Source: a virus (taxonomy: Duplodnaviria; Caudoviricetes). From it: a stretch of DNA of 46,535 bases. Below are positions 21,450-44,962 of the stretch, in pieces (position 1 is the first letter of the stretch; each line of letters opens with the position of its first letter). Both the position numbers and the translations under genes were made by a program. The stretch covers positions 1 through 46,535 of the IMG/VR virus record IMGVR_UViG_3300016476_000328; one strand, written 5' to 3'. Under the pieces are notes generated by a model that saw only the letters and a program-made list of their open reading frames with translations, had not been told where the DNA came from and ran no database searches.

Positions 21450-22258
21450 AAATCAACGAACTACAAATAGACGAAATTGAACGACTCTCACCAAGTGACT
21501 ATCGCGGGGGTAAGAGCTACCTATATGCTGGTTCGTCAACAAAAAAATATTATCCACTGCCAGGTGGCTCTGGGTTTCTATATAGCATAGAAGATCCTCG
21601 TGGTGAACCAGTTATTAAGTTATGGGACCCAAATAGCCAAACATCCGATCCTAAGCCAAAGAAAAGTCCTTATGAATTTACCAGTGAATTTAATAAGAGA
21701 ATGAGGGACTGGGAGGAACGTCAGCGCACAGGTAAGCGTATACCACAAATTATTGGTAAGCTCACACTAGAACAACCATACTATTTTCCACTAAAAGGTG
21801 CATTACAAGTTGGCACCATTACTGTAGATGAAGACTACCGCGGTGTTGGTCTCGCCAAAGCATTGTACGGTATTGTGTTGACTATCATGAAGCGCCCACT
21901 GCTAGCAGGTTCAAGTCAGACCCCTGGTGGTCGTCGAAACTGGGTCAGCCTAAGTCAAATACCTGGTGTGGAAATGAAGGGCTATATTTCCGTACAGGAT
22001 TACGAGTTAAACGTTGACCCTAGAAGAGACGATATGAAATGGGTCAAGAAGGCAGAAGAAAATATTGATGAGATCATGGGTAAGTTGGGTGGGCAATACA
22101 TTGGAAAAAGTGGCAGCGGTCATTTCTTTGCCTTTGATGTTCAGCCTAATACAACCGGCACAGAATTAGAAGCCGCAGTGGAACAAAAGGTTGCACATGT
22201 ATATGGTGGTAAGGCTAGTTTTGAAGGCGGCTTATTTGCAGTTTGGACGGGACAATGA
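21446..22258 (+). CDS. GNAT-fold acetyltransferase-like protein
   Basis: ITVDEDYRGVGLAKALY acetyl-CoA binding motif A; MKINELQIDE leader. Confidence 0.75.
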   Translation: MKINELQIDEIERLSPSDYRGGKSYLYAGSSTKKYYPLPGGSGFLYSIEDPRGEPVIKLWDPNSQTSDPKPKKSPYEFTSEFNKRMRDWEERQRTGKRIPQIIGKLTLEQPYYFPLKGALQVGTITVDEDYRGVGLAKALYGIVLTIMKRPLLAGSSQTPGGRRNWVSLSQIPGVEMKGYISVQDYELNVDPRRDDMKWVKKAEENIDEIMGKLGGQYIGKSGSGHFFAFDVQPNTTGTELEAAVEQKVAHVYGGKASFEGGLFAVWTGQ

Positions 22259-23394
22259 GATTACTAGAACTTTTAGAAGCAACAGATCCAAGACTAGGTC
22301 GTGCCTTCAACCACCTGGAGGACCTAGTGTTCTTCTATGGTACAAAGGGAACAATAGAAGCCCTAGAACACCTCAAGGATCTTAATACCGCAGAGGGCAG
22401 TGGAAGCGTTCGTATGAAGTGGGACGGCAATCCTCAAATTTACTGGGGTAGAGAGAACGGTGTTGTGGTGCCTCCACATGGTCATGCACAGTGGGGTAGA
22501 GCAGTATTACCAAAGACAGGTAAAGATGTGGCTGATTACATTATGAGTACTGGCAAGGCCGCAACACCTGAAGAGATTGCAAGTCGTCAGCAATTTGCCA
22601 ACAAGTTTGCTAGCCTAGCACCACTATTTGCAGCAGCAACACCCAAAGAAGTTGAAGGTAACAGCACATATTATGTATATGCAGATGCGCTATTCTTGGA
22701 ACCACCAGAGTTAAAGGATGGTGTTTACACATTCTGTCCTAACCCAAAGAGCCAGACTTGCTATCATGTTCGTGCTGATAGTGACTTGGGTAAGCGTATT
22801 GCACAAGCAGAAGTCATGGTTGTTGGACACGCATATTTTACAGAGCATGGTCAACCTGATAGCGCACAGATTCCTATTAAAGACTTCAGCCAGTTTAACA
22901 CAAACCCTAAACTGATTGTACTTGGTCCAATCTATAACGTTGCACCTGTTAAGGTTGATACCACAATGATCGACCAGGTAGAGCGTCATATACAACAGCA
23001 TTCAAGACAGGTTGATGGGTTCCTAGCAGGAACAGCAGGTCTAAGTGACCTCAAGCAGATCATATACACATATGTTAACCAGAGTGCAAAAGCCAAACAG
23101 CTAGACAGCCTAAGTGCAGAACATTTCTTCCAGTGGGCTGCAACAAAGGTAAGTGCACCTAAACAGGCAAAGATCAAAGAACTCAACAAGGCAAACAATA
23201 ATGCCCTTGAGGAAATATTTAAAATAGTAAGAGCAGTACAGTTCTTAAAAGATAACGTCATCGATCAGATAGAATCGGGACCTAAGGCTGACATTTGGGA
23301 TACACACGGAGAAGGTCGTGTGCGCTATGCAGATCCCTCAAAACAATTTGGTAACGTGAAATTCGTTCCAAGAAAGCGTTGGACACCACAATGA
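22255..23394 (+). CDS. DUF6267-like protein with ligase-type KxDG motif
   Basis: HLEDLVF, MKWDGNPQIYWG, HGEG and KFVPR; MRLLELLEA leader. Confidence 0.65.
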   Translation: MRLLELLEATDPRLGRAFNHLEDLVFFYGTKGTIEALEHLKDLNTAEGSGSVRMKWDGNPQIYWGRENGVVVPPHGHAQWGRAVLPKTGKDVADYIMSTGKAATPEEIASRQQFANKFASLAPLFAAATPKEVEGNSTYYVYADALFLEPPELKDGVYTFCPNPKSQTCYHVRADSDLGKRIAQAEVMVVGHAYFTEHGQPDSAQIPIKDFSQFNTNPKLIVLGPIYNVAPVKVDTTMIDQVERHIQQHSRQVDGFLAGTAGLSDLKQIIYTYVNQSAKAKQLDSLSAEHFFQWAATKVSAPKQAKIKELNKANNNALEEIFKIVRAVQFLKDNVIDQIESGPKADIWDTHGEGRVRYADPSKQFGNVKFVPRKRWTPQ

Positions 23395-25610
23395 AAATCA
23401 ATACAGTTCTAAACGAAGCGCCACAAAGGGTGGCAATTATATTTGGTAGATTTAATCCACCGCATTATGGTCATAAGGCTGCATGGGAAACTGCATCCAA
23501 GTTCGACCAGTGGTTTGTTGGTACTAACAAGAGTACTATAGGCGAGAAGGATCCACTGCCCTATGAAGTTAAGATTGAGGCTATGAAGGCAGTATGGCCT
23601 GAAGTCGCCAATCACATAATGACTGAACAGAGCTGGTTTACAATGGCCAGCAGAATCTACGAACGTTTTGGTCCCGTCATACTAGTCGTCGTTACAGATG
23701 AAACAGACAAAGACTGGATCATGCCCACCATGGTTAAAAACAATGGCGTGGAAGCTGCACACGGTTACTACAATTTCCCCAAGATTGTTTGGCAAAAAGC
23801 TGCACGTATCAGTAGCGCAACAGATCTGCGTGGTGCAGTAGCAAAGGGCGATAAGGCAGCATTTGAAAAAGCCGCAGGTGTCAGTGCAGATACACCTGTA
23901 GCTGGTAGCACATTCTATGAAGTTGTTAGCAAATACCTAATGCCTTACCTACAAGCTAAGGCGGAAAAAGAACGTATTAAAGCGGAGCGTGAGGCTGCAA
24001 AGGCAGCTAAGGCTGCAAAAGCTAAACCCAAGAAAGAAAGCGTTACAGAAGTTGCTCCACCTGGTATGGAAAAATGGATTAAGGATCGTAAAGCTGATTT
24101 TAAAAAGCGTTATGGTGATCGCTGGGAAGAAGTATTATATGCAACAGCATGGAAGCGCAAGAACAACGAGAGCGTAGAAGAGAGTGCTGAACAAAAGTTT
24201 GCAGTCACTTATGATATCTACGGAAGCAATAAGGAAAAGCCGCTATACACAAAAACTAGAACAGTTAGGGCAAAGAGCGAACAAGAGGCAATAGATACAT
24301 TGCGTAAACTTGTGGGCGGCACCAATTATCGTGTAGAAAAGCAAACAGCAGAAGGCGCCTTTGATAATACTAGTCCAATGACCAAGGATTCTATCAAACA
24401 GGATAAGATTCGCAGTCTAAAGAATCTTATTGCAATAGCTAAAGAAAAAGGTCGTCAACTACGAGTTCAGGAACTTGAATTAGAATTAAAGAAACTAGAG
24501 GGGGTGACCGAAGGATTTGTTGGTAGAGAAACCAAAGATGGTACGTGGAGAGTTTTTAAAGACGGGCAGGCTGTAGCAGTTGCTGGACCATTTAAAAGTA
24601 GAGAAGAGGCGAATACTTGGATACAAAAACACAATAAAGGTGTTGCAGAGTCTGACTCTGCTGAAGATATCAATAAACAAATAGAGTTTCACAAGCAAGG
24701 TCAAGCTGCGGCACAATACAAGGGTGCTATGAATAAAAAGCATGCTGCACGAATTAAAGAATTATTGGCTAAACTAGAAGAACTCAAAACAAAAAGCGTG
24801 AACGAGGAGAAGCAGCGTTTAGATCCTAAATGCTGGGATGGCTACAAAAAGCAAGGCACAAAGATGAAGGGTGACACCAGAGTCAACAACTGTGTCAAAG
24901 AAAGCTTCACACCTATGCAAATTGCCTTAATGGAAGGCGGACATAGCCTAGATGAAGGCTGGAAAGAAAGAGCTGCCGCAGCAGCTCTTGCAGGCGCAGC
25001 AGCACTGGGTGGTGGTAATGCCCAGGCACAAAATATAGATCTGGGCAGGGTAATGCATGGTGCAATGGGTCATGTGGGCAGAATGAGCAACAACCCAAAC
25101 TGGAATAAGAGTGTTGCTGTGGATGCTGCACAGAAAGCGATGCGCCAGACAGTTCAGCAACATGTTCAACAGGAACGTGCAGGTGACCAAGAGCTACTAA
25201 GAAAGATCACAGATCAAAGAGATAGGCAAGCATTTGCAATGGCTGCAAGGGACAAAGACTACTGGCGTCAGGCTGCAATCAATATGAGAGACCGTGTTGA
25301 TATGGGTAAAGCGGCTGCGTCTATAGCTTACTACAAGGAAGTTAAGCGTGAAATGATGTCCAAATACCTAGGCCATGCCGAGGGTGTGGATGACAAAGTT
25401 GCAGGTCGTTATGACCCAGAAGAGTTTGATGCAATGGTATCCAGGGTTGGTAAATTGGCTAAGGCAGGCCCACTAAAAACAGTTTGGGATCCTGTTAAGC
25501 GTGTTTACAAAAACGTACCTGATACTGACAAGCAGAAAAAAATCGCGGAAGCTGTGGTTAAGGTAGTTGAAGTGATCAAGCAGCGAAAGGGCTTGTGGAA
25601 AAACAAGTAA
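23391..25610 (+). CDS. HxGH cytidyltransferase-like domain fused to a string of short modules
   Basis: FGRFNPPHYGH and ISSAT..R motifs; C-terminal two-thirds is short modules bounded by V/L-x-E motifs. Confidence 0.75.
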   Translation: MKINTVLNEAPQRVAIIFGRFNPPHYGHKAAWETASKFDQWFVGTNKSTIGEKDPLPYEVKIEAMKAVWPEVANHIMTEQSWFTMASRIYERFGPVILVVVTDETDKDWIMPTMVKNNGVEAAHGYYNFPKIVWQKAARISSATDLRGAVAKGDKAAFEKAAGVSADTPVAGSTFYEVVSKYLMPYLQAKAEKERIKAEREAAKAAKAAKAKPKKESVTEVAPPGMEKWIKDRKADFKKRYGDRWEEVLYATAWKRKNNESVEESAEQKFAVTYDIYGSNKEKPLYTKTRTVRAKSEQEAIDTLRKLVGGTNYRVEKQTAEGAFDNTSPMTKDSIKQDKIRSLKNLIAIAKEKGRQLRVQELELELKKLEGVTEGFVGRETKDGTWRVFKDGQAVAVAGPFKSREEANTWIQKHNKGVAESDSAEDINKQIEFHKQGQAAAQYKGAMNKKHAARIKELLAKLEELKTKSVNEEKQRLDPKCWDGYKKQGTKMKGDTRVNNCVKESFTPMQIALMEGGHSLDEGWKERAAAAALAGAAALGGGNAQAQNIDLGRVMHGAMGHVGRMSNNPNWNKSVAVDAAQKAMRQTVQQHVQQERAGDQELLRKITDQRDRQAFAMAARDKDYWRQAAINMRDRVDMGKAAASIAYYKEVKREMMSKYLGHAEGVDDKVAGRYDPEEFDAMVSRVGKLAKAGPLKTVWDPVKRVYKNVPDTDKQKKIAEAVVKVVEVIKQRKGLWKNK

Positions 25611-25619
25611 ATAGTATAT

Positions 25620-27986
25620 ATGAAATACCTAGAGCTATTAGAACAAACCCTTAACGAAATCAACATGAGCCCTAGTGCCTTAAAACAGGCAGCGGCTGGT
25701 ATTGATGCTCGTGCAGGTATGGAATTCGAAATGATTGTGCCAGACATTGGCAGTCTGGACGATGATGATTTCGAAAGCGAACCTGACTACGACCAAGACG
25801 AGAGTATAAGTGATTTTGAAGACATTAGAAACTTCTTCCATGATGGTGACTATAATGGTCGTCGTGCAGTTGATCGTCTAATGGAAGACATTGAGCAAGA
25901 ATATTATGACAGCGATTGGCTCAGCGAAAAGAAACATGACATGTGGATGGAGGCTGCAACCGAAAGCATTTCTGATTTGGTTGAAAGAGATTATAGTGAT
26001 ACTCTTTACGATCAAGCAGTAGAGGAAATAGAAAAAGAAAGTCCAGACTTTGGTGTTGGTAGCGATGAATTCAGAGAAGCAGTTGAACAGCGTCATGCTG
26101 AGTTAGTTAAAGAAAAAGTAGACGAGATTCTAGCAGATATGGGCAGTGAATACGATGATGCCTTCAATGACTGGGATAATGACACTTGGCAAGATATACA
26201 AAACGATAGTGATACACAGCGTGAGTGGCTTGAGTATCAGGGCTACAATGCCATGAGTGATATTGCTAACAATTTTGACATTGAGTGGCCACACTGGACA
26301 GAACCAGGCAGCGAATACGGTAGCGGTGGCGAAAACGCACAGCGTATTGCCGACGAGTTCAGTGAATTTATTAACAAAAAGGTCAACTTTAGCATGAGCT
26401 ATCACGGTGGTAGACGTGAACCTGGTGCTTATGTTGTTGAACCTGATGGTAGCTTGGAAGGTGATAACGCTGGCGACCAAGGCTTGGAGTTCGTTAGCCC
26501 GCCAATGCCTATCAACGAATTACTTGCCGACCTAATAGCAGTTAAAGAGTTTGCCGAGAACAATGGTTGCTATACTAACGAGTCCACTGGCTTGCACATT
26601 AACGTTAGTGTTCCTGGCTTCAGCATGGAAAAGCTAGACTATGTTAAGTTAGCCATTCTACTAGGCGATGAGCGAGTATTAAACGAGTTTGGTCGTCTAG
26701 GTAACACATATACAAAGAGTGCTTTACAAATTGTTAAGCAAAATATCAAGCAGCGTCCAGAAGATGCAGCAGCTCTACTAGGTAAAATGCGTGAGCATTT
26801 GAGCACTGCGGCTGCAAAAGCGATTCACAGTGGTGTTACAAGCAAGTACACAAGTATCAACACAAAGACCGGTTACATTGAATTCCGTAGTCCAGGCGGT
26901 GATTGGCTTGGCGCTAACTACGAACTTATTGAACCAACTCTGTTGCGTTTCGTTGTTGCACTAGACGCAGCTCTGGACGAAACAAAATACAGACAAGAGT
27001 ACGCAAAAAAGCTATATAAATTACTTGCTCCTAGCAGTGACGAACCTGGTATCCTAGAACTATTCGCTAACTACAGCGCAGGTGAGTTGGATAAAGAAGC
27101 ATTAATTAGACAAGTTCGAAGTGCCCAACTTTCAAGAAACATTGCTAAGGGCAAAGTATCGGCAGGAGCACAGTATTGGTGGCGTGTTAGCCGTCCTGGT
27201 CATGCAGCCGAAATTGAAGTTGTTGCAAAAAATAAAGAAGAAGCTATCGCAAAAGCATCAGAACCAGGCAACTATCCAGAGTGGCGTGGTCGACAGGATG
27301 TCACAGCTAAACCAATTCGTCCTTATGAAGAAAAGCCCACAGCACAAGCAAGTACAGGGGCAGCAACACCACAACGTCCGGAAAATACTCCTCCAGCAAG
27401 CGGAGAGGGTATGACTGGAAACTGGGGTCTTTGGCTAACAAATGCCAACAGATTTGCAAGGTGGCCAAACAGTCAAGACTTAAGAAGATTTTCAACTCAA
27501 GATGTCGCTCAACGATACTTGGACGATTTGCGACAGTCTAACCCCTTGGTAAGAGGCGATATAGAAGTTCGAAATATAGAACAAGCAGCAGACGCAAGTC
27601 AATTCCAAGAACCCAATGCTAACCGTGGCGACCTAACTCCACGTGGGCCTGGACCTTGGGAAATATATAGATTAAGTGATGGAAGCAGTGTTCGCGAGCT
27701 ATCTAACACAAGCCGTCCAGAAGCTGAACAGGAAGCACGTAATGCACTAGGCCTACGTGCAGAAGCACCAGAGCTTTATGGTGTAAGAACTCGTCAGCAG
27801 CGAGCACAGCAGCACTTTACTGGCTATTGGGACGTTAAGATAGGCGATGAAGTTGTATTTAGAGTACAGGCAGAAACTCAAGGCGAAGCTAACAACAAAG
27901 CTCGTGAATGGATAATGCAACGAAGCCCAGAATTTAGACAGCAGCACCAAGGTGGTGAAGTCTCTGTTACACCGAGGTATGAATAA
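25620..27986 (+). CDS. putative amidoligase (COOH-NH2 ligase, Amidoligase_2-like) with acidic insertion
   Basis: GMEFE, EPDGSL, LEFVSPP, STGLHINV, KYTSIN and IEFRSPGG motifs. Confidence 0.8.
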   Translation: MKYLELLEQTLNEINMSPSALKQAAAGIDARAGMEFEMIVPDIGSLDDDDFESEPDYDQDESISDFEDIRNFFHDGDYNGRRAVDRLMEDIEQEYYDSDWLSEKKHDMWMEAATESISDLVERDYSDTLYDQAVEEIEKESPDFGVGSDEFREAVEQRHAELVKEKVDEILADMGSEYDDAFNDWDNDTWQDIQNDSDTQREWLEYQGYNAMSDIANNFDIEWPHWTEPGSEYGSGGENAQRIADEFSEFINKKVNFSMSYHGGRREPGAYVVEPDGSLEGDNAGDQGLEFVSPPMPINELLADLIAVKEFAENNGCYTNESTGLHINVSVPGFSMEKLDYVKLAILLGDERVLNEFGRLGNTYTKSALQIVKQNIKQRPEDAAALLGKMREHLSTAAAKAIHSGVTSKYTSINTKTGYIEFRSPGGDWLGANYELIEPTLLRFVVALDAALDETKYRQEYAKKLYKLLAPSSDEPGILELFANYSAGELDKEALIRQVRSAQLSRNIAKGKVSAGAQYWWRVSRPGHAAEIEVVAKNKEEAIAKASEPGNYPEWRGRQDVTAKPIRPYEEKPTAQASTGAATPQRPENTPPASGEGMTGNWGLWLTNANRFARWPNSQDLRRFSTQDVAQRYLDDLRQSNPLVRGDIEVRNIEQAADASQFQEPNANRGDLTPRGPGPWEIYRLSDGSSVRELSNTSRPEAEQEARNALGLRAEAPELYGVRTRQQRAQQHFTGYWDVKIGDEVVFRVQAETQGEANNKAREWIMQRSPEFRQQHQGGEVSVTPRYE

Positions 27987-28426
27987 TGAGATTACTAGAA
28001 CTTTTAGATAACGACAAGGACGAGACTCCTAAAACAAATAAGGCGTCTGACCAGCGAGTTGCACCTCATGTACAGGAACCTAAAAACTATGGTACTGCTC
28101 GTGCAATGTCTAAAGACCCTGCTGGTGCTATCCCCAATGCAAGAATTGTAAGCCAGATTAGGAACACCGATACTTACATGCAGTACAGATATGGTATCGC
28201 ACTGGCTGCAAGTGCAGCGCAGCAAGGCAAAGGTAAAGAGTTCGAACAGGAAAGCGACTGGAGTGAAAACATTGGCCTAGTCGGATACACTGATGCAGAC
28301 CTTGAAGTCATCAAGGGTGCAGACAAACTAATGGGCGTTACCAGCGATCAGATCAGCGACGGCGGCAGTCATGAGCAGGACGATGTTAACACCAAGAGTG
28401 CAATCAGCGGAGCAGAAAATCAATGA
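27986..28426 (+). CDS. probable head-associated hypothetical protein
   Basis: MRLLELL leader; YTD...DDVNTKS domain shared with ORF 14532. Confidence 0.75.
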   Translation: MRLLELLDNDKDETPKTNKASDQRVAPHVQEPKNYGTARAMSKDPAGAIPNARIVSQIRNTDTYMQYRYGIALAASAAQQGKGKEFEQESDWSENIGLVGYTDADLEVIKGADKLMGVTSDQISDGGSHEQDDVNTKSAISGAENQ

Positions 28427-28932
28427 GATTGCTTGAACTATTGACGGAAAGCAGGCTAGGTGATATTACCACACCTGATTTTAAAATTTTCGTATCAAGC
28501 CATATGATTGATCAAATAGTTAAGCGTGGTTTGCCTATACTTGGTCCCGATAAAGTTATTAGGAAATTTACAACAGTAAAGAATGAAATACGTGCCTTGG
28601 ACGATGGACAAAAGTTCTGGGTATATGATGACAGCATCAACATGTCTCTGGGTATGAGAAAGATGAACGACTCACACCTAATACTGGCAACAGCAGTAGA
28701 GGGTAGGGCATGGAATAGTCAGGTACCACAGCTTAACGTGGGCACGGTTACAGAACAAGAACTAAACGAGCAACCCTTAATGTATAAGGGCTATCCTTGC
28801 ACTAAGGACTGTGGTGGGCACATGGCTGGATATGCATGGGCAGAGCGTCACGGCATAGATGATGAGGATCTATGCGGGGGCAGTAGCAACAGCTTCTGGG
28901 AAGGATGCAAGAGCAGGGCCGAAGGTAAATAA
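28423..28932 (+). CDS. two-module hypothetical protein with Cys-rich C-terminus
   Basis: MRLLELLTES leader; CTKDCGGH.AGY.WA...C...SF.EGC. Confidence 0.75.
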   Translation: MRLLELLTESRLGDITTPDFKIFVSSHMIDQIVKRGLPILGPDKVIRKFTTVKNEIRALDDGQKFWVYDDSINMSLGMRKMNDSHLILATAVEGRAWNSQVPQLNVGTVTEQELNEQPLMYKGYPCTKDCGGHMAGYAWAERHGIDDEDLCGGSSNSFWEGCKSRAEGK

Positions 28933-28938
28933 TATATT

Positions 28939-30288
28939 ATGCGATTTTCAGAGATAGAATTTTTATTAGAAGCAGGTTTAACTCCTAAAGCCATCCTAAA
29001 GTATCCATGGAGGGCACAACTTTTTGTTGACCGTATCTCTAAAGGTGTACCCTTTGAGACCGTAACAGGCGAGATGGTTGAGATCGACCCCTCTGAAGCA
29101 GAACGTGTTGAGAACATGATTAACATGGGCTCTATTTCCGGTGTGCTAAGAAAGAAAGATGGCGGCACAATAGCATTTGGTAACTTAAAAAAGACCGCAG
29201 AGTTTGCTAAAGAAGGTGGCGCTGGAGCAGATACAGTGTCAAATAGGGGCGACATCGCTGAGGGTATCCTAAGTGCGGCATTGTTCGCCAAGCTGAAAGC
29301 TCGTGTAGATGGTACAATCGGTGAAGTCACAGAGATGGACGTCTGGCACGTAGTAGATTCACTAAAAGCATCTGGCGGTGACATGTATAGCGTCAACGTT
29401 AAAGACGCAAGCAAGAAACTCGTTAATGACAGCATCATTTATACACTGCAACTTCCAGAGCCAGCATATCTTGACCTCACTAACCCTGAAAAGCGTGGCT
29501 CACTAAAGCAGGAAACATCTAGTGCAGTGCTATTTGCCAACAGCAAAGACAACGAAAAGTTCAGTGAGTACTTCTATCTCAATGGCAAACCAGATATCAT
29601 TGACATTGTCTGTGATGGTGGTAACCCTGCTAAACAAAAGACAAGCAAAGTAGACATTGAAGTTGTCGTCACTGACAAACTAACCGGTAAGCGAAGGAAA
29701 CAGCGCCTCGATATTAGTCTTAAGGCTGTGGCTAAACAGTTTGGACAGGTTGGTATGGGTAGTGCAGCTAAGGGCGATTACTTTGAAAAGCAGGCTTCCC
29801 TATGGAGCAAGTTCGGCGTTGATATTGAACCTGTCAAGGGAACTTTTGAAAAGCTGGCTAAGAAAGACTTGCTAAAGGCTGTGGCAGAAGTATACAAATA
29901 CTCTGCTAAAATCATCAATAACATGCTGGACGGTGATGACAGCATGGACGAATATCAGTACCTAAAAACTATGACTGCTGGCATCAACTACTTTGCCACT
30001 CTAAACACACCCAACGTTATTCTGGTTAACCTTAAGGGTGGTGGCTACGAGATGATCAGTTTCAGCAATATGGAAAGTAAACTAGAGGGTGTTGATTTAG
30101 CTGCCCGCTACAGAGCAGATTTGGCTACCCCTCAGGTTGAAGTATACGACACATTTTCAAATGAGATCCTTTTCCAAGTACGTGTTAAGTGGCTTGGTGA
30201 CGAGAAGCGAAACTACGTTGAAAAGGGCTCGCTCATGGGCAAGTTGCTGGGTGCCACAGTCAAGCCAATGAGAAAAAAGAAACAATAA
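28939..30288 (+). CDS. possible PD-(D/E)xK restriction-like nuclease
   Basis: G..AEG helix, KVDIEV and ISLK arranged like motifs I-III; MRFSEIEFLLEA leader. Confidence 0.5.
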   Translation: MRFSEIEFLLEAGLTPKAILKYPWRAQLFVDRISKGVPFETVTGEMVEIDPSEAERVENMINMGSISGVLRKKDGGTIAFGNLKKTAEFAKEGGAGADTVSNRGDIAEGILSAALFAKLKARVDGTIGEVTEMDVWHVVDSLKASGGDMYSVNVKDASKKLVNDSIIYTLQLPEPAYLDLTNPEKRGSLKQETSSAVLFANSKDNEKFSEYFYLNGKPDIIDIVCDGGNPAKQKTSKVDIEVVVTDKLTGKRRKQRLDISLKAVAKQFGQVGMGSAAKGDYFEKQASLWSKFGVDIEPVKGTFEKLAKKDLLKAVAEVYKYSAKIINNMLDGDDSMDEYQYLKTMTAGINYFATLNTPNVILVNLKGGGYEMISFSNMESKLEGVDLAARYRADLATPQVEVYDTFSNEILFQVRVKWLGDEKRNYVEKGSLMGKLLGATVKPMRKKKQ

Positions 30289-30303
30289 TTGATAAATATT
30301 CAC

Positions 30304-30540
30304 ATGAAAATCGAAGAAATACTTGAAGATGCAGGTGGTATGGGAGCGGGTAGCGTAGCTGCCGTTTCAATGCCATTTATGCAAATGCACCGTAGACGCA
30401 AGAACCGCTTGATTAGACACAAGGCAGGCGAAGAGATTCAGCACCGCAGGGCGGCTAAAGAACTAACTGAAGAAGAACTAGAACAACTAGCTTTAGAAAA
30501 AGTCCTTCAAGTTTTTGATTACACAGATTACAAGGGTTAA
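30304..30540 (+). CDS. small hypothetical protein
   Basis: MKIEEILED leader; TAAATA at 30293. Confidence 0.7.
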   Translation: MKIEEILEDAGGMGAGSVAAVSMPFMQMHRRRKNRLIRHKAGEEIQHRRAAKELTEEELEQLALEKVLQVFDYTDYKG

Positions 30541-30544
30541 AGAT

Positions 30545-31519
30545 ATGAAATTATTTGAACTTTTCGAAAGTCCAATTTTAGGCGGTGCTAACAACCTAAG
30601 AGCAATCGCACAGGCTGCAACGTCTGGCGGCGAAGCTCACATTACCCTAGGTGATGAGCCAATCACATTAGAACACCCAGAAGCACGTTTTGTATACGGT
30701 CTTTATAAGCGTGCTCTGCAAAACGGACAACAAGAGCAATTCCTAAAAGCCCTTACAGATCCAATGAGCTTTGATAAAATGATGGGCACTATGAGAAACA
30801 TGCTGTATAGGGATCGTGGTCCTGAGATGGCACAGGCAGCAGCGGCTCGTATCGGGGAACCTGGCATGCAAGAGGCAGTTGGCATGCACATGACAGAAAA
30901 CACAGAGACCCTAAAGCATATCGTTAATCGCTTCAAACACGAAGTAAAGAATTTCCTAAATGGTCATGAACTAGACACTGACCTATACAATGCATTGTTT
31001 GATTACTATAGCGATCACGGTGAAATGCCTTATGGTGTTGCTAAGGCGAGAGACGATGATCCTGTTAATTGGGTAACAAACAGATTCGGTCAGGACGTAC
31101 ATCAATACGTTCACGAAAGTACATATTTTGAAGGTGAGTATATCTTTGAAGGCTGGGCAGAAATGATGGCAGCTTCCAAAGAGCGTGCGGAAAAAGAAAA
31201 AACATCTGGTAAATTCGACAAGAAAACAACAAGCACGGGCACAGTATATACTCGCAAGTATAACCCAGATACAGGTGAGACTGAAGAACCTAAGAAAGAT
31301 GCAGAAGGTAAAGAGCCAGTAAAACGCGGTCGTGGTCGTCCACGCACTCGTCCCGAGCCAGATACAACTGCACCAAAGAGAGGTCGCGGTCGTCCTCGTA
31401 AGCATCCTCTACCAGACCCAAATGCACCTAAGCGTGGTCGCGGTCGTCCTAAGAAAGTCCGTGAATGGATTGAGACTCTACGTTTCGTAGCAGAGGGTTT
31501 TAAGAATGCGTCTAAGTAA
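30545..31519 (+). CDS. AT-hook-containing probable DNA-binding head protein
   Basis: Three KRGRGRP[RK] motifs near the C-terminus; MKLFELFES leader. Confidence 0.8.
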   Translation: MKLFELFESPILGGANNLRAIAQAATSGGEAHITLGDEPITLEHPEARFVYGLYKRALQNGQQEQFLKALTDPMSFDKMMGTMRNMLYRDRGPEMAQAAAARIGEPGMQEAVGMHMTENTETLKHIVNRFKHEVKNFLNGHELDTDLYNALFDYYSDHGEMPYGVAKARDDDPVNWVTNRFGQDVHQYVHESTYFEGEYIFEGWAEMMAASKERAEKEKTSGKFDKKTTSTGTVYTRKYNPDTGETEEPKKDAEGKEPVKRGRGRPRTRPEPDTTAPKRGRGRPRKHPLPDPNAPKRGRGRPKKVREWIETLRFVAEGFKNASK

Positions 31520-34500
31520 CATAACAGAAAGCGACATCAGCGGGCTATTGTCCGCTGCTCGCGATTACAACAAAGTATTCCGCATCACTGCTGAACTAGC
31601 AGAAGGCGGAGTTAAGAAATTCAAAGTAAAAGCACAAAGCGAACGTGTTGCAAGAGAGAAATTTCTCAAGCATGCTAGCATGGCTAAGATCCTCAAGGTA
31701 GAGGACATTACCAATGAGAGTGTTAATGAGGCAGGTGAAGACACATTCATGTCTGCACTTAAAGGCCTAAAGAGTTGGCAAGTTGTTATTATGAACAACT
31801 ACTACCGCGGTAAGTATTCAGACTACAGTGGTAGATATTATTATGTATTGGCGTCAAGCCCAGAAGAAGCCAAGCAAGTTGTACTAGACAATGCTGATGC
31901 CATTCTACAAGACTTACTGTCAATGAAGTCTGTCAATGGCAAGAAGATACTACCACGTAGCAGTGCTATTCCTATTACTGATAAACGCATTGGTGAGATT
32001 AAAGATGGTACAGAAGCTGGCCGTATGAGTACCGCAGGCTTTAAGCGCATGTTTGGCCCACAAGGTCCAATGATGGTTAAACTAAGTGGCGGCGCAGTAG
32101 TTGATGTACAAGGTCAAGAGCAAGGTGTGGCGGAAGGCGATCATCCAAAAACCTGGCACGATGTTGATCCAAAACTTGGTAAGGCTGTGGACAAAATGTC
32201 GCAGGCTGAAAAGGTCAAAAAAGGTCTTGCCCATCCTGATACACTGAACACAGAAAAAGTCTATAAAGTTGTAGCACTCGACAAGAGCAATGCTCTAAAG
32301 AAGCCAACAAAACTAAATGTAAAAGCCAGTAGTATAGAAGATGTGTTCAGTAGATTAGCAGCCAATGATTGGTATGCGTTATCAATTAATGGTGTTGAAG
32401 TTGTTGCTGGCAAGCGTCTAAAGCAAGGTGTGGCGGAAGGCTCCGATTATCAATCATATCTAGACAAGTATTCTAACTCTAAGTCTAAGAAACCGTTGAT
32501 GACTAAAACCGAATTTGATACCCTTCAGAGAAAAAAAGAAGATGACAAGAAATACAAAAGAGTAAATGGTGTAATAGTCGGTCGCAAAGGTGTGGCGGAA
32601 GGCTCAGAATTTGAAGACGCATACGATAAAGGCTACAGAGATGGCTACGATGGTAAAGGATACAATAGCCCGTTCCCTGTGGGCAGTGACCAAGACGATG
32701 AATACGAAGATGGTTATTCCAGCGGCAGACTAGACTACAACAAGATGAACCAAGATTTGGACGAGCAAGGTGTGGCGGAAGGCGAGTATAAATCAAGACA
32801 TATCCATCGTCAAGAACAAAACAAAAAATATGACGAATATTGCCGCAGTCAAGAAGCCGCCGGCAAGAAGCCAATGAGTCGTGGAGATTGGGCCGCTACT
32901 CAAAGAAAAGGTCAAAAGCAAGGTGTGGCGGAAGGCTCATCAGATCGTAGGAAGCAAGAACAAGAAGCAGATAAATGGTTGGAAAAGCGTATAATGAAAT
33001 GTACTTGTCCCACCTCTGCACGAAATAATCCTAAATGCCCGGTGCATGGTAAGAAGAAAGGTGTGGCGGAAGGCTCTGACAATATCCGTTCAATGATTCA
33101 GCAATATGAAGATATGGTAGAACTGGTGTATGATTTGCCACCAGGACGAAAGAAAAATATTGCCATCGACAAACGAGATGCGTTAGAAGCACAAATAGAA
33201 GCAATGCCCGGTGGCAAAGAAGCATTACGCAAGTGGGCAAGAGCATACAACGATTCTTTTGACGAAGGTGTGGCGGAAGGCTCGTTAGAAGAATACGGTA
33301 ATACCGCACGAGGTCAAAAGATGCTGACCAAAGTCCATAAACGAGCAGTGGATCGTGTGATCAAGGCAGACGATAAAAATAGACTAGAACCAGATTATAC
33401 CAAAAGAGATCTAAAAACAGTAAGAAAGAATCAAGCAACTGCTGACCGTGCCTGGGACAGAATGTCAGACCTAGACGAACAAGGTGTGGCGGAAGGCTAT
33501 CCAAAGCATCAAGACTTGAGTGGTATTTCTACAGACAAACTAAAGGCTTACTTAGACAAGCAGAGTAAGCAACAAGTTTCAGGCGAAGGTAATCAAATCA
33601 AGCGTGTTCGTGCCGAATTACAGCGTAGAGAACAAGGTGTAACGGAAGTAAGCACAGAACTAAGAAACCGTTACGTAACTCGTGCAAGCAGTGATTATGG
33701 TCATGCCAACTTCGGCGCTAGAATGTCTAAGGATGATCCTAACTTGCAGGATTATCACAAAGAACAAGCACGTAGGGCACAGAAAAGAGCAGCAGGCCTA
33801 AATCGTGCGTTAAGTGATAAGCGTCTTGGTCGCGACGTTGCTGAAGCAGGAACACTTGCAGGAACCCTAACACTAAAAGACAAAAGCGACTATATGGCGA
33901 GAAGAAAAGCCATACAAGACATGCAGATGGATCCAGAGTTTGGTAGGAACCCTCGCTTAAAAGCTGAAATAATGAAGCTTCGTGCAGAGTTAGAAAAGGC
34001 TGCAAAGGCAAAAGGTCTTGTTGCAGAAGATGCTTCTGGTTTAAACGTAGGTGATCCTGTAGTTATTACAGGCAACGTCAGCTTTAAAGGTAAGACCGGA
34101 GACATTGTTAGTTTTGGTCGCAATAATGCATTTGTTGTAGTTGATCTATACAATCACGGCAAGCACAGCTTCCATAGCAGTGACGTAAGTTTCAATGACT
34201 ATGCAGGCAGTGATGACGAAGAAGCACGTATGTATGATGCAGGTGAGTTTAGAGATGATGTGGATGAAGGTTATTTGGATCGTCCAGGTCAAGAAGACAG
34301 TCCCGTCGCTCAAGCTATTACACGCCGTATCCTTTTACAACGCACTGACTTGCTAGCCAAGTATGGTCCAGAAAAAGTTATGAGCGCTATTGATGAAGTT
34401 GCTGACTTTGTTGGTGATGTTGACGAAATCGGTAGCAGTGATGTTAGTGGTTGGGTTCGTCATGTTGAGCAAATATTGGGCAACATGGAAGAAAGCAAAC

Positions 34501-34655
34501 TTGAATCTGAAGATCAAGGACCTAAGAGTGCATTGGGCAAAGCTCTGTGGAGAGACCTAAGCAAATTCAAAAAAGCTAGTCCAGTACAGCAGCAACGTAA
34601 TAAAGAACGTTGGGCAGCTAATCCTAATAACCCAATTAATAAGGCAGGCAAATGA
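31506..34655 (+). CDS. repeat-punctuated modular polyprotein
   Basis: 1049 aa; eight GVAEG linkers plus variants GVTE, DVAE, LVAE separating unrelated modules. Confidence 0.85.
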   Translation: MRLSNITESDISGLLSAARDYNKVFRITAELAEGGVKKFKVKAQSERVAREKFLKHASMAKILKVEDITNESVNEAGEDTFMSALKGLKSWQVVIMNNYYRGKYSDYSGRYYYVLASSPEEAKQVVLDNADAILQDLLSMKSVNGKKILPRSSAIPITDKRIGEIKDGTEAGRMSTAGFKRMFGPQGPMMVKLSGGAVVDVQGQEQGVAEGDHPKTWHDVDPKLGKAVDKMSQAEKVKKGLAHPDTLNTEKVYKVVALDKSNALKKPTKLNVKASSIEDVFSRLAANDWYALSINGVEVVAGKRLKQGVAEGSDYQSYLDKYSNSKSKKPLMTKTEFDTLQRKKEDDKKYKRVNGVIVGRKGVAEGSEFEDAYDKGYRDGYDGKGYNSPFPVGSDQDDEYEDGYSSGRLDYNKMNQDLDEQGVAEGEYKSRHIHRQEQNKKYDEYCRSQEAAGKKPMSRGDWAATQRKGQKQGVAEGSSDRRKQEQEADKWLEKRIMKCTCPTSARNNPKCPVHGKKKGVAEGSDNIRSMIQQYEDMVELVYDLPPGRKKNIAIDKRDALEAQIEAMPGGKEALRKWARAYNDSFDEGVAEGSLEEYGNTARGQKMLTKVHKRAVDRVIKADDKNRLEPDYTKRDLKTVRKNQATADRAWDRMSDLDEQGVAEGYPKHQDLSGISTDKLKAYLDKQSKQQVSGEGNQIKRVRAELQRREQGVTEVSTELRNRYVTRASSDYGHANFGARMSKDDPNLQDYHKEQARRAQKRAAGLNRALSDKRLGRDVAEAGTLAGTLTLKDKSDYMARRKAIQDMQMDPEFGRNPRLKAEIMKLRAELEKAAKAKGLVAEDASGLNVGDPVVITGNVSFKGKTGDIVSFGRNNAFVVVDLYNHGKHSFHSSDVSFNDYAGSDDEEARMYDAGEFRDDVDEGYLDRPGQEDSPVAQAITRRILLQRTDLLAKYGPEKVMSAIDEVADFVGDVDEIGSSDVSGWVRHVEQILGNMEESKLESEDQGPKSALGKALWRDLSKFKKASPVQQQRNKERWAANPNNPINKAGK
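32122..33497 (+). repeat. array of eight identical 17-bp direct repeats AAGGTGTGGCGGAAGGC with unique in-frame spacers
   Basis: Copies start at 32122, 32425, 32587, 32767, 32920, 33058, 33265 and 33481; degenerate ninth copy at 33634. Confidence 0.95.
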
Positions 34656-40921: not shown

Positions 40922-41296
40922 ATGAATAAGATGATTTGGGTTACCTTCCGCAAAGAAGGCATCCACAAATATCCAGCAGCCCTGACAGATCCAAATCTTG
41001 CAACTGGTGACGAATATGATGTTAGCTTTCTAGGCTATCCTCACAGACACATATTCCACTTCAAGGTAGCTATCGAAGTGTTTCACGATGATAGAGACAT
41101 TGAGTTTATCCAGTTCAAGCGTTGGCTCGAAAACCTTTACAAAGAGGGTACACTGGCGCTAGACTATAAGAGTTGCGAGATGATTGCAGAAGATCTGTAC
41201 GCACAGATCAATAAAAAATACCCAAACAGAACTGTTTGGATTGACGTAAGTGAGGACGGTGAAAATGGATGCCACATTCAATTTGACAAAAACTAA
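40922..41296 (+). CDS. QueD/6-pyruvoyl-tetrahydropterin synthase-like T-fold protein
   Basis: GIH, HRHIFH, IEF...K, SCEMIA and VSEDGENG pattern. Confidence 0.7.
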   Translation: MNKMIWVTFRKEGIHKYPAALTDPNLATGDEYDVSFLGYPHRHIFHFKVAIEVFHDDRDIEFIQFKRWLENLYKEGTLALDYKSCEMIAEDLYAQINKKYPNRTVWIDVSEDGENGCHIQFDKN

Positions 41297-41306
41297 AGTG
41301 AAACAT

Positions 41307-41666
41307 ATGAACAACACACACCACAACGTAAGCCGTGCATTGATTCACATCAACGATGTGAAGTATGATCTGCTTAAAATTGCAGAACTTTATGATGGTG
41401 TTCTACAAGAAGGTCTGGGTCATTTGCCCACACATCTTTTTAGCATGTATCTAAATGACCTCAAAGAAGGTCGCTGGATTCATGACTACGAGATCGCTGA
41501 AACTGTTCTCAAGGAGCACAGCTACACCTATGACGTGAACATCCAGATCACAAACGATAGGACACCCAAGAAGCTGAAGATCCATGTGGGTCTTTATAAG
41601 AGCGCATGGCCTGATATCGCCGCTAACTTCAAGTACAACGAAAAAACTGGTTACCATGCTCAGTAA
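41307..41666 (+). CDS. hypothetical protein
   Basis: 119-aa ORF within the operon. Confidence 0.7.
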   Translation: MNNTHHNVSRALIHINDVKYDLLKIAELYDGVLQEGLGHLPTHLFSMYLNDLKEGRWIHDYEIAETVLKEHSYTYDVNIQITNDRTPKKLKIHVGLYKSAWPDIAANFKYNEKTGYHAQ

Positions 41667-43179
41667 AAAGACAAGAGTCGATTTATGGGAAAGGAACAAG
41701 GATTATGCCGTGTTCCTGCCTAGTATAAGCAGCTTTTACAATAGCTTTATCAGCAAACAGCATCACAGCGAGTTTGTGCCCAAGAGCAGACTGCCTGCAG
41801 AGTTTGAGAATGGCGTAGAAGGTATGAACTTCCTGAACAAGGAACAGGCATACTATTACTATCCCTGGGCTCTTTACTCTGCTGGTCACGCTCAGCTGGA
41901 CGTTGAGAAAAGCCGTACAGAAGAAAGCATGATTCACCGCAGGGACCGTAAGGAAACTATGATCCTTGGTGACTCTGGCGGATTCCAGATTGGTAACGGT
42001 CAAATTAAATTTGACTGGGAACACTTTTACGAGCAGCGAGGCGATACTGGCTACAAGGGTAACGCTGACCGTGTTCGTGATAGTATTCTTAACTGGCTTG
42101 AGGAAACTTCTGACTACGCAATGATCTTGGATATTCCAACTCGTGCAACAGAAGGTAAATTCCGTGAGCTAACCAAGATGAAGAGCTTTGGTGATGCCCT
42201 TAATGCTACTATGTTCAATAACGATTACTTTGTGCGTAACCGCCAAGGTAAGACCAAGTTCTTGAACGTGCTGCAAGGACAAAACGGCGCTGATGCTGAT
42301 ATCTGGTACGACAAAGTCAAACACTATCCTTTTGAAGGTTGGGCTATGGGTGGTCTGAACATGCGTGATGCAAACCTTGCACTACGCAGACTGATCATCA
42401 TGCGTGACGAGAAACTACTTGAACCAGGACGCGATCTTATTCACTACCTGGGCACAAGTAAGCTAGAGTGGGCTGTCCTGGCAACTGCTATGCAACGAGC
42501 TCTGCGTAAGCATGTGAATCCTAACATCACATTGACTTACGATTGCGCGAGCCCGTTTATTGCAACTGCAAAAGGTCAGGTATATACTCAGCACGTTCAT
42601 CGTAACAACCGCTTTAGTTACATCATGGACAAGGCTCTAGATGACAAACGTCTTGCAGGCAGCAAGGCACAGTGGCCCTGGAACAGTCCTGTTGGTGAAC
42701 GTATGACTATGGGCGATGTCTGCTACTATGCACCAGGTATGCTGAATAAAATCGGCAAGGAAGGTAAGACCAGCTGGGATAGCTTCAGTTACTTCCTAAT
42801 GATGGGACACAATGTATATCAACACATTGAAAGCGTTCAACGTGCTAACGCACTGACAGATGCAGCATGTGAAATGTACAAACCAGATCCTGGCACCTGG
42901 ACAAAAGGCAAGGGTGGTGAGTTTAGTCACTGGGTTCCTAAGAATCTTGTGTACATGACTGAACTTGTTAACAGGGTATTTGAGTCTGAGACTCCTATGA
43001 CAGAACTGGAACGTGCAGAAAGTTTGATTGCTGAATTTAACAGCAAGAAAACAATCAAGAGTTCTGCTGATGCGTTTAACAGTCTGTTTGAAGCTGATCT
43101 TGGCGATGACCATGATGCTGGTCAGGTTGAAGATTGGTTGGAAGAGGATGCAGACGATCTGTTAAAAGGCGTTGCATGA
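41656..43179 (+). CDS. TGT-fold transglycosylase, probably DNA 7-deazaguanine inserting (DpdA-like)
   Basis: DSGGFQ, LDIP, NVLQG, GWAMGG, HYLG and YDCASP motifs; next to a QueD-like gene. Confidence 0.75.
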   Translation: MLSKKTRVDLWERNKDYAVFLPSISSFYNSFISKQHHSEFVPKSRLPAEFENGVEGMNFLNKEQAYYYYPWALYSAGHAQLDVEKSRTEESMIHRRDRKETMILGDSGGFQIGNGQIKFDWEHFYEQRGDTGYKGNADRVRDSILNWLEETSDYAMILDIPTRATEGKFRELTKMKSFGDALNATMFNNDYFVRNRQGKTKFLNVLQGQNGADADIWYDKVKHYPFEGWAMGGLNMRDANLALRRLIIMRDEKLLEPGRDLIHYLGTSKLEWAVLATAMQRALRKHVNPNITLTYDCASPFIATAKGQVYTQHVHRNNRFSYIMDKALDDKRLAGSKAQWPWNSPVGERMTMGDVCYYAPGMLNKIGKEGKTSWDSFSYFLMMGHNVYQHIESVQRANALTDAACEMYKPDPGTWTKGKGGEFSHWVPKNLVYMTELVNRVFESETPMTELERAESLIAEFNSKKTIKSSADAFNSLFEADLGDDHDAGQVEDWLEEDADDLLKGVA

Positions 43180-44063
43180 AAAAGGCACTTGTAGTTGGAC
43201 TGGGTATGGGCACTCAATATGCCCTGTGGTTAACTGAGTTGGGCTACAATGTTTATACTGTTGACGTCGATCCAGGCAAGGCAGCATCCTATACGGATGT
43301 TGCCGTTGCGTTGGGGCATCATCCACAGTTAGACGTAGTTTATATTGGTACGCCAAACTGGACACATGAGTCTATAGCGCAACAGGTTGCCCCGCATGCA
43401 AAGCTGGTGCTGGTGGAAAAACCTGGTGTAAAGTATAGCAGCAACTGGCAACAACTGGTGGCATCATATCCTGACACCAGGATCATGATGGTTAAAAACA
43501 ATCAGTTTAGACCAGAAATCAAACGTTTTAAGCAACTGGCTGACCAGAGTGATAAAATCTATGTTCGTTGGAACAATGCCAATCGAATTCCTCATCCTGG
43601 TAGTTGGTTTACAACCAAGGAAAAGGCATTTGGTGGAGTGAGCAGAGACCTGATGCCGCACATGCTCAGTTATTATTGTGCCTTGACAGATTATCGGCAA
43701 GGTGTTAAAATAAAAGCTAAGGCAATCCAAAGTTATGAACTCAAGGATATTCATAGTACTGATTACGGCAGTGTTAATCCTAATGGCACTTACGATGTCG
43801 ATGACTTCTGTCACTTCGAGTTCAAGAACGGTAGCACCACTTGGGTTTTAAGTGCAAACTGGAAAACCAATTTGGATCATGACGATAGTAGCATTTCATT
43901 CAGTATGAAAAATTCTGCTCTGCGTCACGAACTGGGTCTGTGTCCTGCTGAAGCATACAAGGCTATGATCCAGGAGGCAATGGACAACTTGGATAATAAC
44001 AACTTCTGGCAAAAACAGTTAGACCAGGATCTTTGGATTCATCAACAAATAGAAAACTTATGA
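43176..44063 (+). CDS. Gfo/Idh/MocA-family NAD(P) oxidoreductase
   Basis: VVGLGMG, IGTPNWTH, VEKP and GG...DLMPH motifs. Confidence 0.88.
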   Translation: MKKALVVGLGMGTQYALWLTELGYNVYTVDVDPGKAASYTDVAVALGHHPQLDVVYIGTPNWTHESIAQQVAPHAKLVLVEKPGVKYSSNWQQLVASYPDTRIMMVKNNQFRPEIKRFKQLADQSDKIYVRWNNANRIPHPGSWFTTKEKAFGGVSRDLMPHMLSYYCALTDYRQGVKIKAKAIQSYELKDIHSTDYGSVNPNGTYDVDDFCHFEFKNGSTTWVLSANWKTNLDHDDSSISFSMKNSALRHELGLCPAEAYKAMIQEAMDNLDNNNFWQKQLDQDLWIHQQIENL

Positions 44064-44962
44064 ACAGAGTGCTAGTTACAACAGGTAAGGGCGAGTTTAA
44101 AGAAGAGTTTTATGACCTTCCCGCACTGCTTGATGATGATTCCATTTTTGTGCGATCTGTGATGACGGGTGTCTGTCGCAGTGATATAGACATGATGCAG
44201 GGTAACTTTGGTCCGTTGCCCAAGCACATGCAGGGCCATGAAGGTTTGGCCAAAGTAGTAAAGGTAGGTAGAAATGTCAAAGACGTCAAAGCAGGCGACT
44301 ATGTCGCAACCCGAGGTGAACCCGCATATGCCGACGAATACATTGTTCGTGCTAGAGAATATGTTCGCGTTCCAGAGGCTCATCCTAGATATATCCTTGA
44401 GCCCGTGGCTTGCGGCATCAATGTGGTTTCTCAACCCATACGTGAAATCGCAGAACGAAGTGGTCCAGGACGAAAACTCCTGATACTTGGCAGTGGGTTC
44501 CTCGCCTGGGTGGCCTACAATACCCTACTGCTCAACCATTTAGATTTTGAAATCACTGTTGTTGGCTCCAGTAATAAGGAGTTATGGGGCGATAAATTAC
44601 AACCATATTATGGTGGCAAATATGATGTTGTAATCGATCTAAGCCCACGTAATGATGTTTTCTTTTTGGACATACTTAATAATGAAGCACTCGTTGTTAT
44701 GGGCGTTGAAAAAGAAATAACCACATCATTCAATACCTTGCTTTGGAAAGCATGTACTATGGTGTTCCCCAGCCCTCGCACTGATAAGTTCTATAAGTGT
44801 ATGCAGGATGCGGAATACTGGATTACGAATGGCGACTTAAACGTTGACAGCTTCTGGAGCAAAGGCTACAATAGAGATACAGAGTGGCGTCAGGCTTTTT
44901 TAGATGGCGTTGTTAGACCTGCTGGTTACAGCAGGGGTTATATAAAGTGGAACAATGTCTAA
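44060..44962 (+). CDS. zinc-binding (MDR) dehydrogenase
   Basis: GVCRSD, GHEG, V..GD.V, EPVAC and ILGSGF motifs. Confidence 0.88.
   Translation: MNRVLVTTGKGEFKEEFYDLPALLDDDSIFVRSVMTGVCRSDIDMMQGNFGPLPKHMQGHEGLAKVVKVGRNVKDVKAGDYVATRGEPAYADEYIVRAREYVRVPEAHPRYILEPVACGINVVSQPIREIAERSGPGRKLLILGSGFLAWVAYNTLLLNHLDFEITVVGSSNKELWGDKLQPYYGGKYDVVIDLSPRNDVFFLDILNNEALVVMGVEKEITTSFNTLLWKACTMVFPSPRTDKFYKCMQDAEYWITNGDLNVDSFWSKGYNRDTEWRQAFLDGVVRPAGYSRGYIKWNNV

Follow-up and report, generated by a model that had tools for sequence, protein, structure and literature searches.

How do unrelated small domains come to stand in one reading frame, separated by repeats that are identical down to their silent bases? 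The question is raised by a 46,535-nt stretch of viral DNA (IMG/VR record IMGVR_UViG_3300016476_000328, positions 1 to 46,535; hereafter the window), in which the repeat AAGGTGTGGCGGAAGGC occurs eight times without a mismatch, always on the + strand, between 32122 and 33497 (Table 1). The chance mean is 0.04. The periods are 303, 162, 180, 153, 138, 207 and 216 nt, followed by 153 nt to a decayed copy at 33634, and beyond the eight exact copies none with up to three mismatches was found in the window. All eight are in frame in one open reading frame (ORF; 31506-34655) and encode the peptide Q/K/E-G-V-A-E-G. A preliminary description of the locus had given eight mismatch-free repeats with these periods and an unbroken frame, and the same positions and periods were recovered. 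It had also called the intervening sequences unrelated, and indeed the best non-self blastp match among the eight spacers is 32% over 31 aa. The spacers are unrelated to each other and are not tandem duplicates. Below, each repeat is called a joint and the sequence between joints a cassette.

A 15-bp core fixed at silent sites

Function resides in a 15-bp core, AAGGTGTGGCGGAAG, rather than in the full 17-mer. With both wobble positions left free there are 145 distinct matches, a count that takes in unrelated chance matches, and 104 of them have GTG-GCG, against about 1.6% expected from codon use in these ORFs (0.191 x 0.085). This agrees with the earlier claim that the DNA is conserved beyond the peptide. 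A second ORF (23379, then given as 23391) had been said to encode similar peptides by other codons, and these are seen at 24499 and 24637. The window itself displays decay, as synonymous drift in ORF 23379 and as joint loss in spacer 1, which is two cassettes (M1a and M1b) that have lost the joint between them. The loss fits a 27-nt deletion between two TGAA. Contigs of L034 and of run X4 have a joint at the M1a/M1b border, and the homologue P0122 carries the same fusion as the window. Further members of this cassette pool, their joints decayed, stand at the ends of the array ORF, outside 32122-33650, and in ORF 23379.

The window is assigned to a T4-related jumbo phage because its family-B polymerase is 50.5% identical to that of Sinorhizobium phage Phosso, 47.9% to that of Atu_ph07 and 42-45% to those of RaK2-like phages. 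Near-identical DNA occurs in freshwater, wastewater and estuary runs. The exact motif was found in at least 130 stretches of viral contigs and at least 122 of metagenome contigs. Nearly all of 174 distinct sites, counted from the viral matches listed and the window, encode GVAEG in a long ORF; the matches in L050, L093 and L106 look like chance. Five incomplete records of 260-343 kb carry one to five joint copies each, over one to three genes; one of them, G002, lacks head genes. It is listed as 99% complete, yet tblastn finds no portal, gp21 or gp23. The polymerases of G001 and G002 are 58-59% identical to that of the window, yet the core is the same, and all 10 sites with at most two core mismatches in these two relatives are on the coding strand of cassette-type genes.

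Joint spacings range from 150 to 704 nt (5th-95th percentile) and within ORFs are multiples of 3 in 226/226; no joints closer than about 60 nt were found in viral contigs. A second repeated joint was not found, the 60 most context-diverse 12-mers all overlapping the known one. There is no repeated joint around the amidoligase-like homologue in Ralstonia phage RsoM2USA (31 kb) or in Atu_ph07 (25 kb). Among 185,579 prokaryotic genomes, 18-mer matches numbered 56, of which 55 were single, a chance-like level. A cellular origin of the joint was rejected, as the sole triple (L464) carries phage-type cassettes. The L464 contig, with its three joints, is binned as Bacteroidetes; it is probably a misbinned phage contig and gives no host assignment.

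Cassette swapping at the core

Homology between cassette genes breaks at the joint. Among 276 non-redundant ORFs with a joint, 94 of 172 ends of DNA alignments with at least 90% identity fell on a joint in both sequences (1.3 expected), and 404 of 1857 fell on a joint when all identity classes were taken (9.3 expected). The 60-nt flanks of 574 sites were also compared, pairs with an intermediate second flank being excluded. Where one flank was shared the other was unrelated in 124/124 pairs at 75-85% identity, 96/96 at 85-95% and 70/88 at 95-100%; in the 18 exceptions both sides are identical, representing the same strain or contig twice. In the control within cassettes, homology broke in only 12/132, 5/106 and 1/79 pairs. 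Neighbour change outpaces point mutation.

Protein homologues were compared using the best 120 of 599. The orthologue P0002 matches the array ORF at its start (92-93%) and end (89%) and is different in the middle, where M6 (98%) precedes M1a (97%). P0002 and P0010, among others, show a clean difference of one cassette, and L324 differs from L322 and L370 by a clean one-cassette indel of 126 nt. Between P0109 and P0116 the blocks are permuted from ABCD to new-CDAB, which fits a circle or a duplication followed by deletion. M1b was analysed in 67 placements, with a joint on the left in 49, on the right in 50 and on both sides in 40. In run X2, which was separately assembled, M7 recurs with one difference in 236 nt between flanks that are foreign on both sides, the 3' flank being a cassette found in ORF 23379 of the window. 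In run X4, M1a comes after M6, at a joint whose short side has 98 letters. Run joints with fewer than 30 letters on one side were discarded, and gaps in X2-X4 coverage were not counted as cassette loss.

It is virtually certain that cassettes are swapped at the core. The preliminary description had proposed the repeat as a DNA exchange site, and this is upheld by cassette gain, loss and reordering with breakpoints at the repeat in the orthologue, the indels and the permutation. Several spacers occur separately in other genes beside a joint, as the two-sided placements of M1b illustrate. Neither retention of the same modules in the same order nor an origin of the spacers as diverged tandem duplicates explains the array.

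Clustering of 300 internal cassettes gave 237 clusters, 199 of them singletons, and a Chao1 estimate of about 1,100; in the protein set 413 cassettes fell into 268 families. The median cassette length is 68-69 aa, and 51% of 509 carry a net basic charge of +3 or more. Some cassettes are common with cyanomyoviruses. One contig (L067) carries a cassette in two of its genes (100% flank), and P0121 has M1b as a diverged tandem pair within one protein.

The exchange machinery and comparable systems

The exchange point was mapped with 171 pairs of sites sharing the upstream flank only and 152 sharing the downstream flank only. Non-consensus bases at -3 follow the upstream side (33/42 vs 7/74) and those at +13 the downstream side (17/33 vs 6/83). 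Inside the core, non-consensus bases were shared by upstream- and downstream-flank pairs in 0/40 and 0/22 cases at the Val wobble, 0/22 and 0/27 at the Ala wobble, and 2/22 and 4/18 at the Glu wobble. The exchange point maps to the 15-bp core. In our reading, rearrangement draws on or restores a consensus core, and variants arise afterwards as private decay.

RecA/UvsX was found in 5/5 large relatives. Tyrosine recombinase (PF00589) and reverse transcriptase (PF00078) were each found in 0/5, and resolvase, IS110 transposase and topoisomerase IB gave nothing above cut-off in the five records, resolvase and IS110 each having a single weak match below it. Of 202 proteins that G002 shares with G001 in single stretches, 181 were scanned; 11 more spanned stretch borders. 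The scanned proteins include a helicase, gp46/47-like proteins, a ligase, a SegE-like GIY-YIG endonuclease, a TnsA-like endonuclease and many without a family; no site-specific recombinase was found among the 181. Neither the five large relatives nor the shared-protein scan thus yielded, above cut-off, a dedicated recombinase to go with the proposed exchange site. Polarised acquisition of the integron or CRISPR kind, suggested earlier from repeat decay, was not borne out. Exact copies lie at a median 0.41 of the ORF and decayed copies at 0.53 (p=0.04), and the mean per-ORF Spearman coefficient is 0.18 (35 positive and 21 negative of 61 ORFs), a weak trend. Allele pairs agree more often in their 5' cassettes than in those at the 3' side: seven share a prefix only, three a suffix only and two both.

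Starting from the observed core identity across distant phages, silent-site fixation, breakpoints, indels, block transfer and permutation, we propose the following account, to which we assign a probability of about 60%. The 15-bp core would be the in-frame point at which cassettes are gained, lost and reordered by general phage recombination on a short perfect match, through small-circle excision and re-entry and through unequal crossing-over. Only cores matching the consensus would recombine efficiently, so that the consensus would spread while idle copies decay. The gene would be expressed late, and its product packaged by way of the N-terminal motif and cut after Glu, so that V-A-E cuts would turn one packaged polyprotein into many small head proteins. 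These would be released into the host, where some may counter its defences or its gene expression in the manner of T4 internal proteins. For the exchange step taken by itself, general recombination machinery rather than a dedicated enzyme is probable. Phages would then vary their head protein cargo by domain shuffling without introns, with DNA exchange and probably also protein processing at one site. Hundreds of proteins of 40-120 residues that annotation buries in 'hypothetical' genes are delimited exactly by the joint, so that screening them for injected counter-defence or host-takeover proteins becomes straightforward.

Several points weigh against this account. Fifteen bases are short for RecA-type exchange, and a helper enzyme may be among the family-less shared proteins. 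No joint closing a single cassette on itself, as in a mini-circle, was found in four contig-only runs. Cassettes are not always single movers: among homologues, site pairs shared one side in 690 cases and both sides in 43, and cassette blocks sometimes travel together. The distinct neighbours of M1b (46/48 on the left, 45/50 on the right) come from a 50%-representative library that inflates their diversity. The substitution counts in 119 single-mismatch cores (64 synonymous, three at the first two Glu bases, one at the middle Val base) are biased, as most loci were chosen by exact motif. On the protein side, the window cassettes have no known function by Pfam, PHROG or ESM Atlas (the last for N2 and M1b), no head protease was found among 35 proteins scanned in the 46.5-kb window, and V at P3 of V-A-E differs from the I/L of the T4 sites compared.

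An alternative is that an unrecognised dedicated phage enzyme, either a recombinase or a site-specific nuclease with a ligase, acts on the 15-bp core, making the array a protein-level integron. Such an enzyme would suit a single core fixed across 58-59% polymerase identity, rearranged partners that almost never share non-consensus core bases, and neighbours that differ despite 95-100% identity of the cassette flank (70/88 pairs); the SegE-like endonuclease and the many family-less proteins common to G001 and G002 offer candidates. We nevertheless consider it unlikely, as the recombinase, topoisomerase IB and reverse transcriptase families searched gave no match above cut-off in 5/5 records, the core has no dyad symmetry, there is no polarity, cassette blocks move jointly, and the window contains a deletion at 4-nt microhomology, which shows that ordinary slippage is at work. 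The question is whether a 15-bp perfect match alone holds the consensus across 40% polymerase divergence or an unknown recombinase does. In a broader form, which we rate slightly lower, a freshwater jumbo-phage clade would share a library of about a thousand cassette families, the unrecognised enzyme moving single cassettes and a protease freeing injected effectors. Every joint would then flag a catalogue of candidate anti-defence proteins.

Exchange at the core by general machinery can be compared with known systems. The PeSL elements of the T4-type phages RB49 and phi1 (Arbiol et al. 2010, PMC2839356) are described in the accessible text as intergenic promoter-terminator elements of about 100 bp that move whole early genes and form circles without a known recombinase; on length, that text says only that repeat patches are <50 bp. 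So far as it goes, both systems have T4-like phages, direct repeats around small ORFan units, recombination that deletes, inserts or replaces units, and no identified recombinase; unit gain, loss and replacement at the repeat were confirmed here. The joint differs in being a 15-bp coding site in late genes, at which the frame is kept and pieces of protein are moved. It also differs in that the coding repeat of 15-17 bp has neither promoter nor stem-loop; promoter and terminator scans were at chance level, and TATAAATA is present once in the window, likewise at chance level.

Repeats named 'recer' reportedly go back to de Chateau and Bjorck in 1996. The accessible text of PMC3467074 describes them as multiple 15-bp direct repeats in the intronless genes of protein PAB-type albumin-binding proteins, with proposed domain shuffling. 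To that extent both systems have in-frame direct repeats of about 15 bp at domain borders as exchange points, a likeness that was confirmed here. The recer proteins, however, are bacterial surface proteins with few domain types, whereas here there are hundreds of unrelated phage cassette families and the joint is probably also a protease site.

Integrons and CRISPR arrays also consist of unrelated units from a large pool, separated by repeats. Unlike integrons, the system has IntI-type PF00589 in 0/5 records (all incomplete), no end polarity and no palindromic attC, the core lacking a dyad and folds of the eight copies being weak. Unlike CRISPR arrays, its units are coding, in one frame and over several genes, at spacings of 150-704 nt; no Cas family was found among 35 window and 181 relative proteins, and scans of the window for tRNAs and Rfam RNAs gave no match. 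The reverse transcriptase of a diversity-generating retroelement or retron is missing in the records searched (PF00078, 0/5). These features set the array apart from integrons, CRISPR arrays, PeSLs and retroelements. By analogy, it may work like PeSL mini-circle shuffling or recer repeats within a polyprotein resembling T4 internal proteins. No description of the joint was found in the literature searched, most subscription papers and bioRxiv supplements being beyond reach, which leaves room for an earlier description in print. What is new is the array of eight copies, the comparison with orthologues, the map of the crossover, the permuted pair and the negative finding for polarity.

Predicted packaging and cutting of the polyprotein

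S77 (gp21) protease and gp23 capsid protein were found in 3/5 relatives; the gp21 homologue of G001 lies at L275:14640-15272, and the first 42 residues of G001 gp23 contain L-L-E, I-L-E and L-K-E. The accessible text of PMC5694885 gives Glu as the residue after which the proteases of T4 (gp21) and giant phages cut, and names ITE-6 and LTE-619 as cut sites in T4 Alt. The array ORF starts with MRLSNITE, placing ITE at residue 8. [ILVFM]-x-E, a loose motif and not T4's own sequence, occurs in residues 4-18 of 84/130 family ORFs vs 34/150 and 32/172 controls, and ATAAATA is found upstream of 26/127 family ORFs vs 12/150 and 12/172 controls. A 1.45-fold enrichment of V-x-E persists with GVAEG masked. 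The rarity of changes at the first two Glu bases of single-mismatch cores (three of 119, in loci mostly chosen by the exact motif) likewise speaks for cutting. PHROG 'virion structural protein' families were matched by 2/25 homologues. Atu_ph07 gp196 appears with 14 peptides in the virion table of that phage (PMC6102473, accessible text) and is, by mass, the homologue of ORF 25620, which neighbours the array ORF in the window. Cutting of V-A-E after Glu by a gp21-type head protease is predicted from these motifs and is, in our judgement, quite probable.

For a good share of the cassettes, a host-directed function has about an even chance. Pfam matched 17/50 family ORFs, several below the curated cut-off, with GNAT, deaminase, DUF6321, DUF5872, DUF6934, SutA-RBD, LysM and peptidase-S74 among the matches. 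A cassette in L359:634-2313, whose match to the SutA RNA-polymerase-binding domain falls narrowly short of the curated cut-off, is a candidate host-takeover peptide. L044, L056, L297 and P0015 carry a twin-arginine (TAT-like) cassette directly after a joint, with a weak Pfam TAT_signal match, which is odd for a head protein.

T4 IPI* is described in the accessible texts of PMC3012670 and PMC5694885 as a 76-residue injected anti-restriction protein. The family resembles T4 IPI-III and Alt in its N-terminal hydrophobic-x-Glu motif, in the S77 protease and gp23 of its relatives and in its small, diverse, often basic products. In T4 every internal protein has a gene and a targeting sequence to itself, whereas here up to about 10 cassettes, chained by a DNA-fixed joint, depend on a single start. 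The nearest protein concept is that of the polyvalent proteins of phages and conjugative elements (Iyer et al. 2017, PMC5512222), which in the accessible text combine many unrelated domains and are delivered by virion or transfer. On that account both have unrelated domains in one protein, shuffled under conflict, and GNAT occurs in both; polyvalent proteins differ in their larger enzymatic domains and embedded peptidases, and in that text a repeated DNA joint is not described and the word 'linker' is absent.

Alternatively, swapping could be real and V-A-E a flexible linker or scaffold-binding tag, the protein remaining whole or becoming degraded head filler and the cassettes having no host role. 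About half of 509 cassettes are net basic, as expected of DNA-neutralising filler, the window cassettes have no known function, and the accessible text of PMC5694885 has T4 core proteins cut to fragments that leave the head. However, Glu and Val are the best protected joint residues, some family members match GNAT, deaminase, SutA, LysM or peptidase-S74 (several below cut-off), and hundreds of cassette families (237 clusters from 300 cassettes) are hard to square with filler. We find this reading improbable.

A G-quadruplex made of four GG runs, such as reportedly triggers recombination at Neisseria pilE, or a Chi-like hotspot is a very improbable explanation of the motif. The rare codons GTG and GCG do make the second and third GG runs, and ViennaRNA predicts a two-tier quadruplex in 5/8 copies, but its predicted stability is low (about -1.4 to -2.5 kcal/mol), the core takes in only part of the fourth GG, which the common GVAEA/E/D/V forms lack, and the non-G wobble T is conserved as strongly as the G wobbles. 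That short-word assemblers created the shuffling by joining contigs at a 17-23-nt repeat is scarcely credible: matches do lie within 350 nt of a contig end in 20/80 loci and most run joints have fewer than 30 letters on one side, but L322 and L370, two records with different names, match at each of their five joints, P0008 and P0010 agree over five joints and then diverge, X1 contigs match the window array without a difference (X1 may be the source of the window), and other neighbours appear in separate assemblies, namely in X2 record 13 and at the X4 joint whose short side has 98 letters.

The coordinates of the array ORF and related features are collected in Table 1. The ORF has no Pfam or PHROG family, and a tblastn search of 50,697 annotated phage records gave no match. 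In the ESM Atlas, N2 matched unnamed viral clusters only, at 0.80, and M1b matched nothing. Among the 120 homologues C3 is present in 51 and C4 in 83, in variable order.

Table 1. Cassettes, joints and associated features of the window
Feature	Position	Strand	Remark
Possible T4-type late promoter, ATAAATA	30292..30298	+	precedes ORF 30515/30545 and the array ORF
Cassette polyprotein ORF, 1049 aa	31506..34655	+	ends common to orthologue P0002
N-terminal MRLSNITE, predicted capsid-targeting/propeptide motif ending I-T-E	31506..31529	+	function predicted from sequence
Cassette N1, older	31605..31730	+	joint decayed to L-A-E / V-N-E; elsewhere in other polyproteins at different positions
Cassette N2, 131 aa	31731..32121	+	in 48/120 homologues; GVAE before it in L289/L290
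Joint copy 1	32122..32138 (15-bp core 32122-32136)	+	exact 17-mer
Cassette M1a	32136..32243	+	in 13/459 other proteins, identity up to 100%
Scar of lost M1a/M1b joint	32244..32248	+	putative in-frame deletion
Cassette M1b, 60 aa	32247..32424	+	71 matches among 50%-representatives
Joint copy 2	32425..32441	+	exact 17-mer
Cassette M2, basic	32439..32586	+	no homologue among 459 proteins
Joint copy 3	32587..32603	+	exact 17-mer
Cassette M3, acidic, Tyr/Gly-rich	32601..32766	+	5 homologues among 459 proteins
Joint copy 4	32767..32783	+	exact 17-mer
Cassette M4	32781..32919	+	M4-M5 block identical in a different gene, P0046
Joint copy 5	32920..32936	+	exact 17-mer
Cassette M5, Cys/His motif	32934..33057	+	with M4 in P0046 block
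Joint copy 6	33058..33074	+	exact 17-mer
Cassette M6	33072..33264	+	98% identical in P0002, P0008, P0010, neighbours different
Joint copy 7	33265..33281	+	exact 17-mer
Cassette M7	33279..33480	+	X2 contig: 33261-33496, 1 difference, both flanks foreign
Joint copy 8	33481..33497	+	exact 17-mer
Cassette M8	33495..33633	+	in 20/459 other proteins
Decayed joint, G-V-T-E-V	33634..33650	+	2 core mismatches
Cassettes C1-C5	33648..34652	+	decayed joints V-A-E, V-D-E, L-E-S-E
Cytidylyltransferase-like domain, then same-pool cassettes	23379..25610	+	joints decayed synonymously at 24499, 24637

The C-terminus of ORF 30515-31519 has three AT-hook-like RGRGRP repeats (31321-31470), and this ORF has cassettes in common with the pool. 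Two genes begin with identical 24-nt sequences encoding MRLLELL (22254-22277 and 27985-28008), and close variants occur at 25619, 28422 and 30544; the predicted targeting motif may have been copied between genes. About 10 genes in 20706-34655 (DUF6267, GNAT, cytidylyltransferase, amidoligase-like and unknowns) have similar N-terminal motifs, and this region is probably a head-cargo cluster. A tail-fibre-like ORF at 5543-8686 has collagen-type Gly-X-Y blocks in three repeated units. Downstream of the polymerase, 40922-46037 holds unannotated and oxidoreductase genes, among them a 531-aa ORF without a family, which possibly serve DNA base modification.

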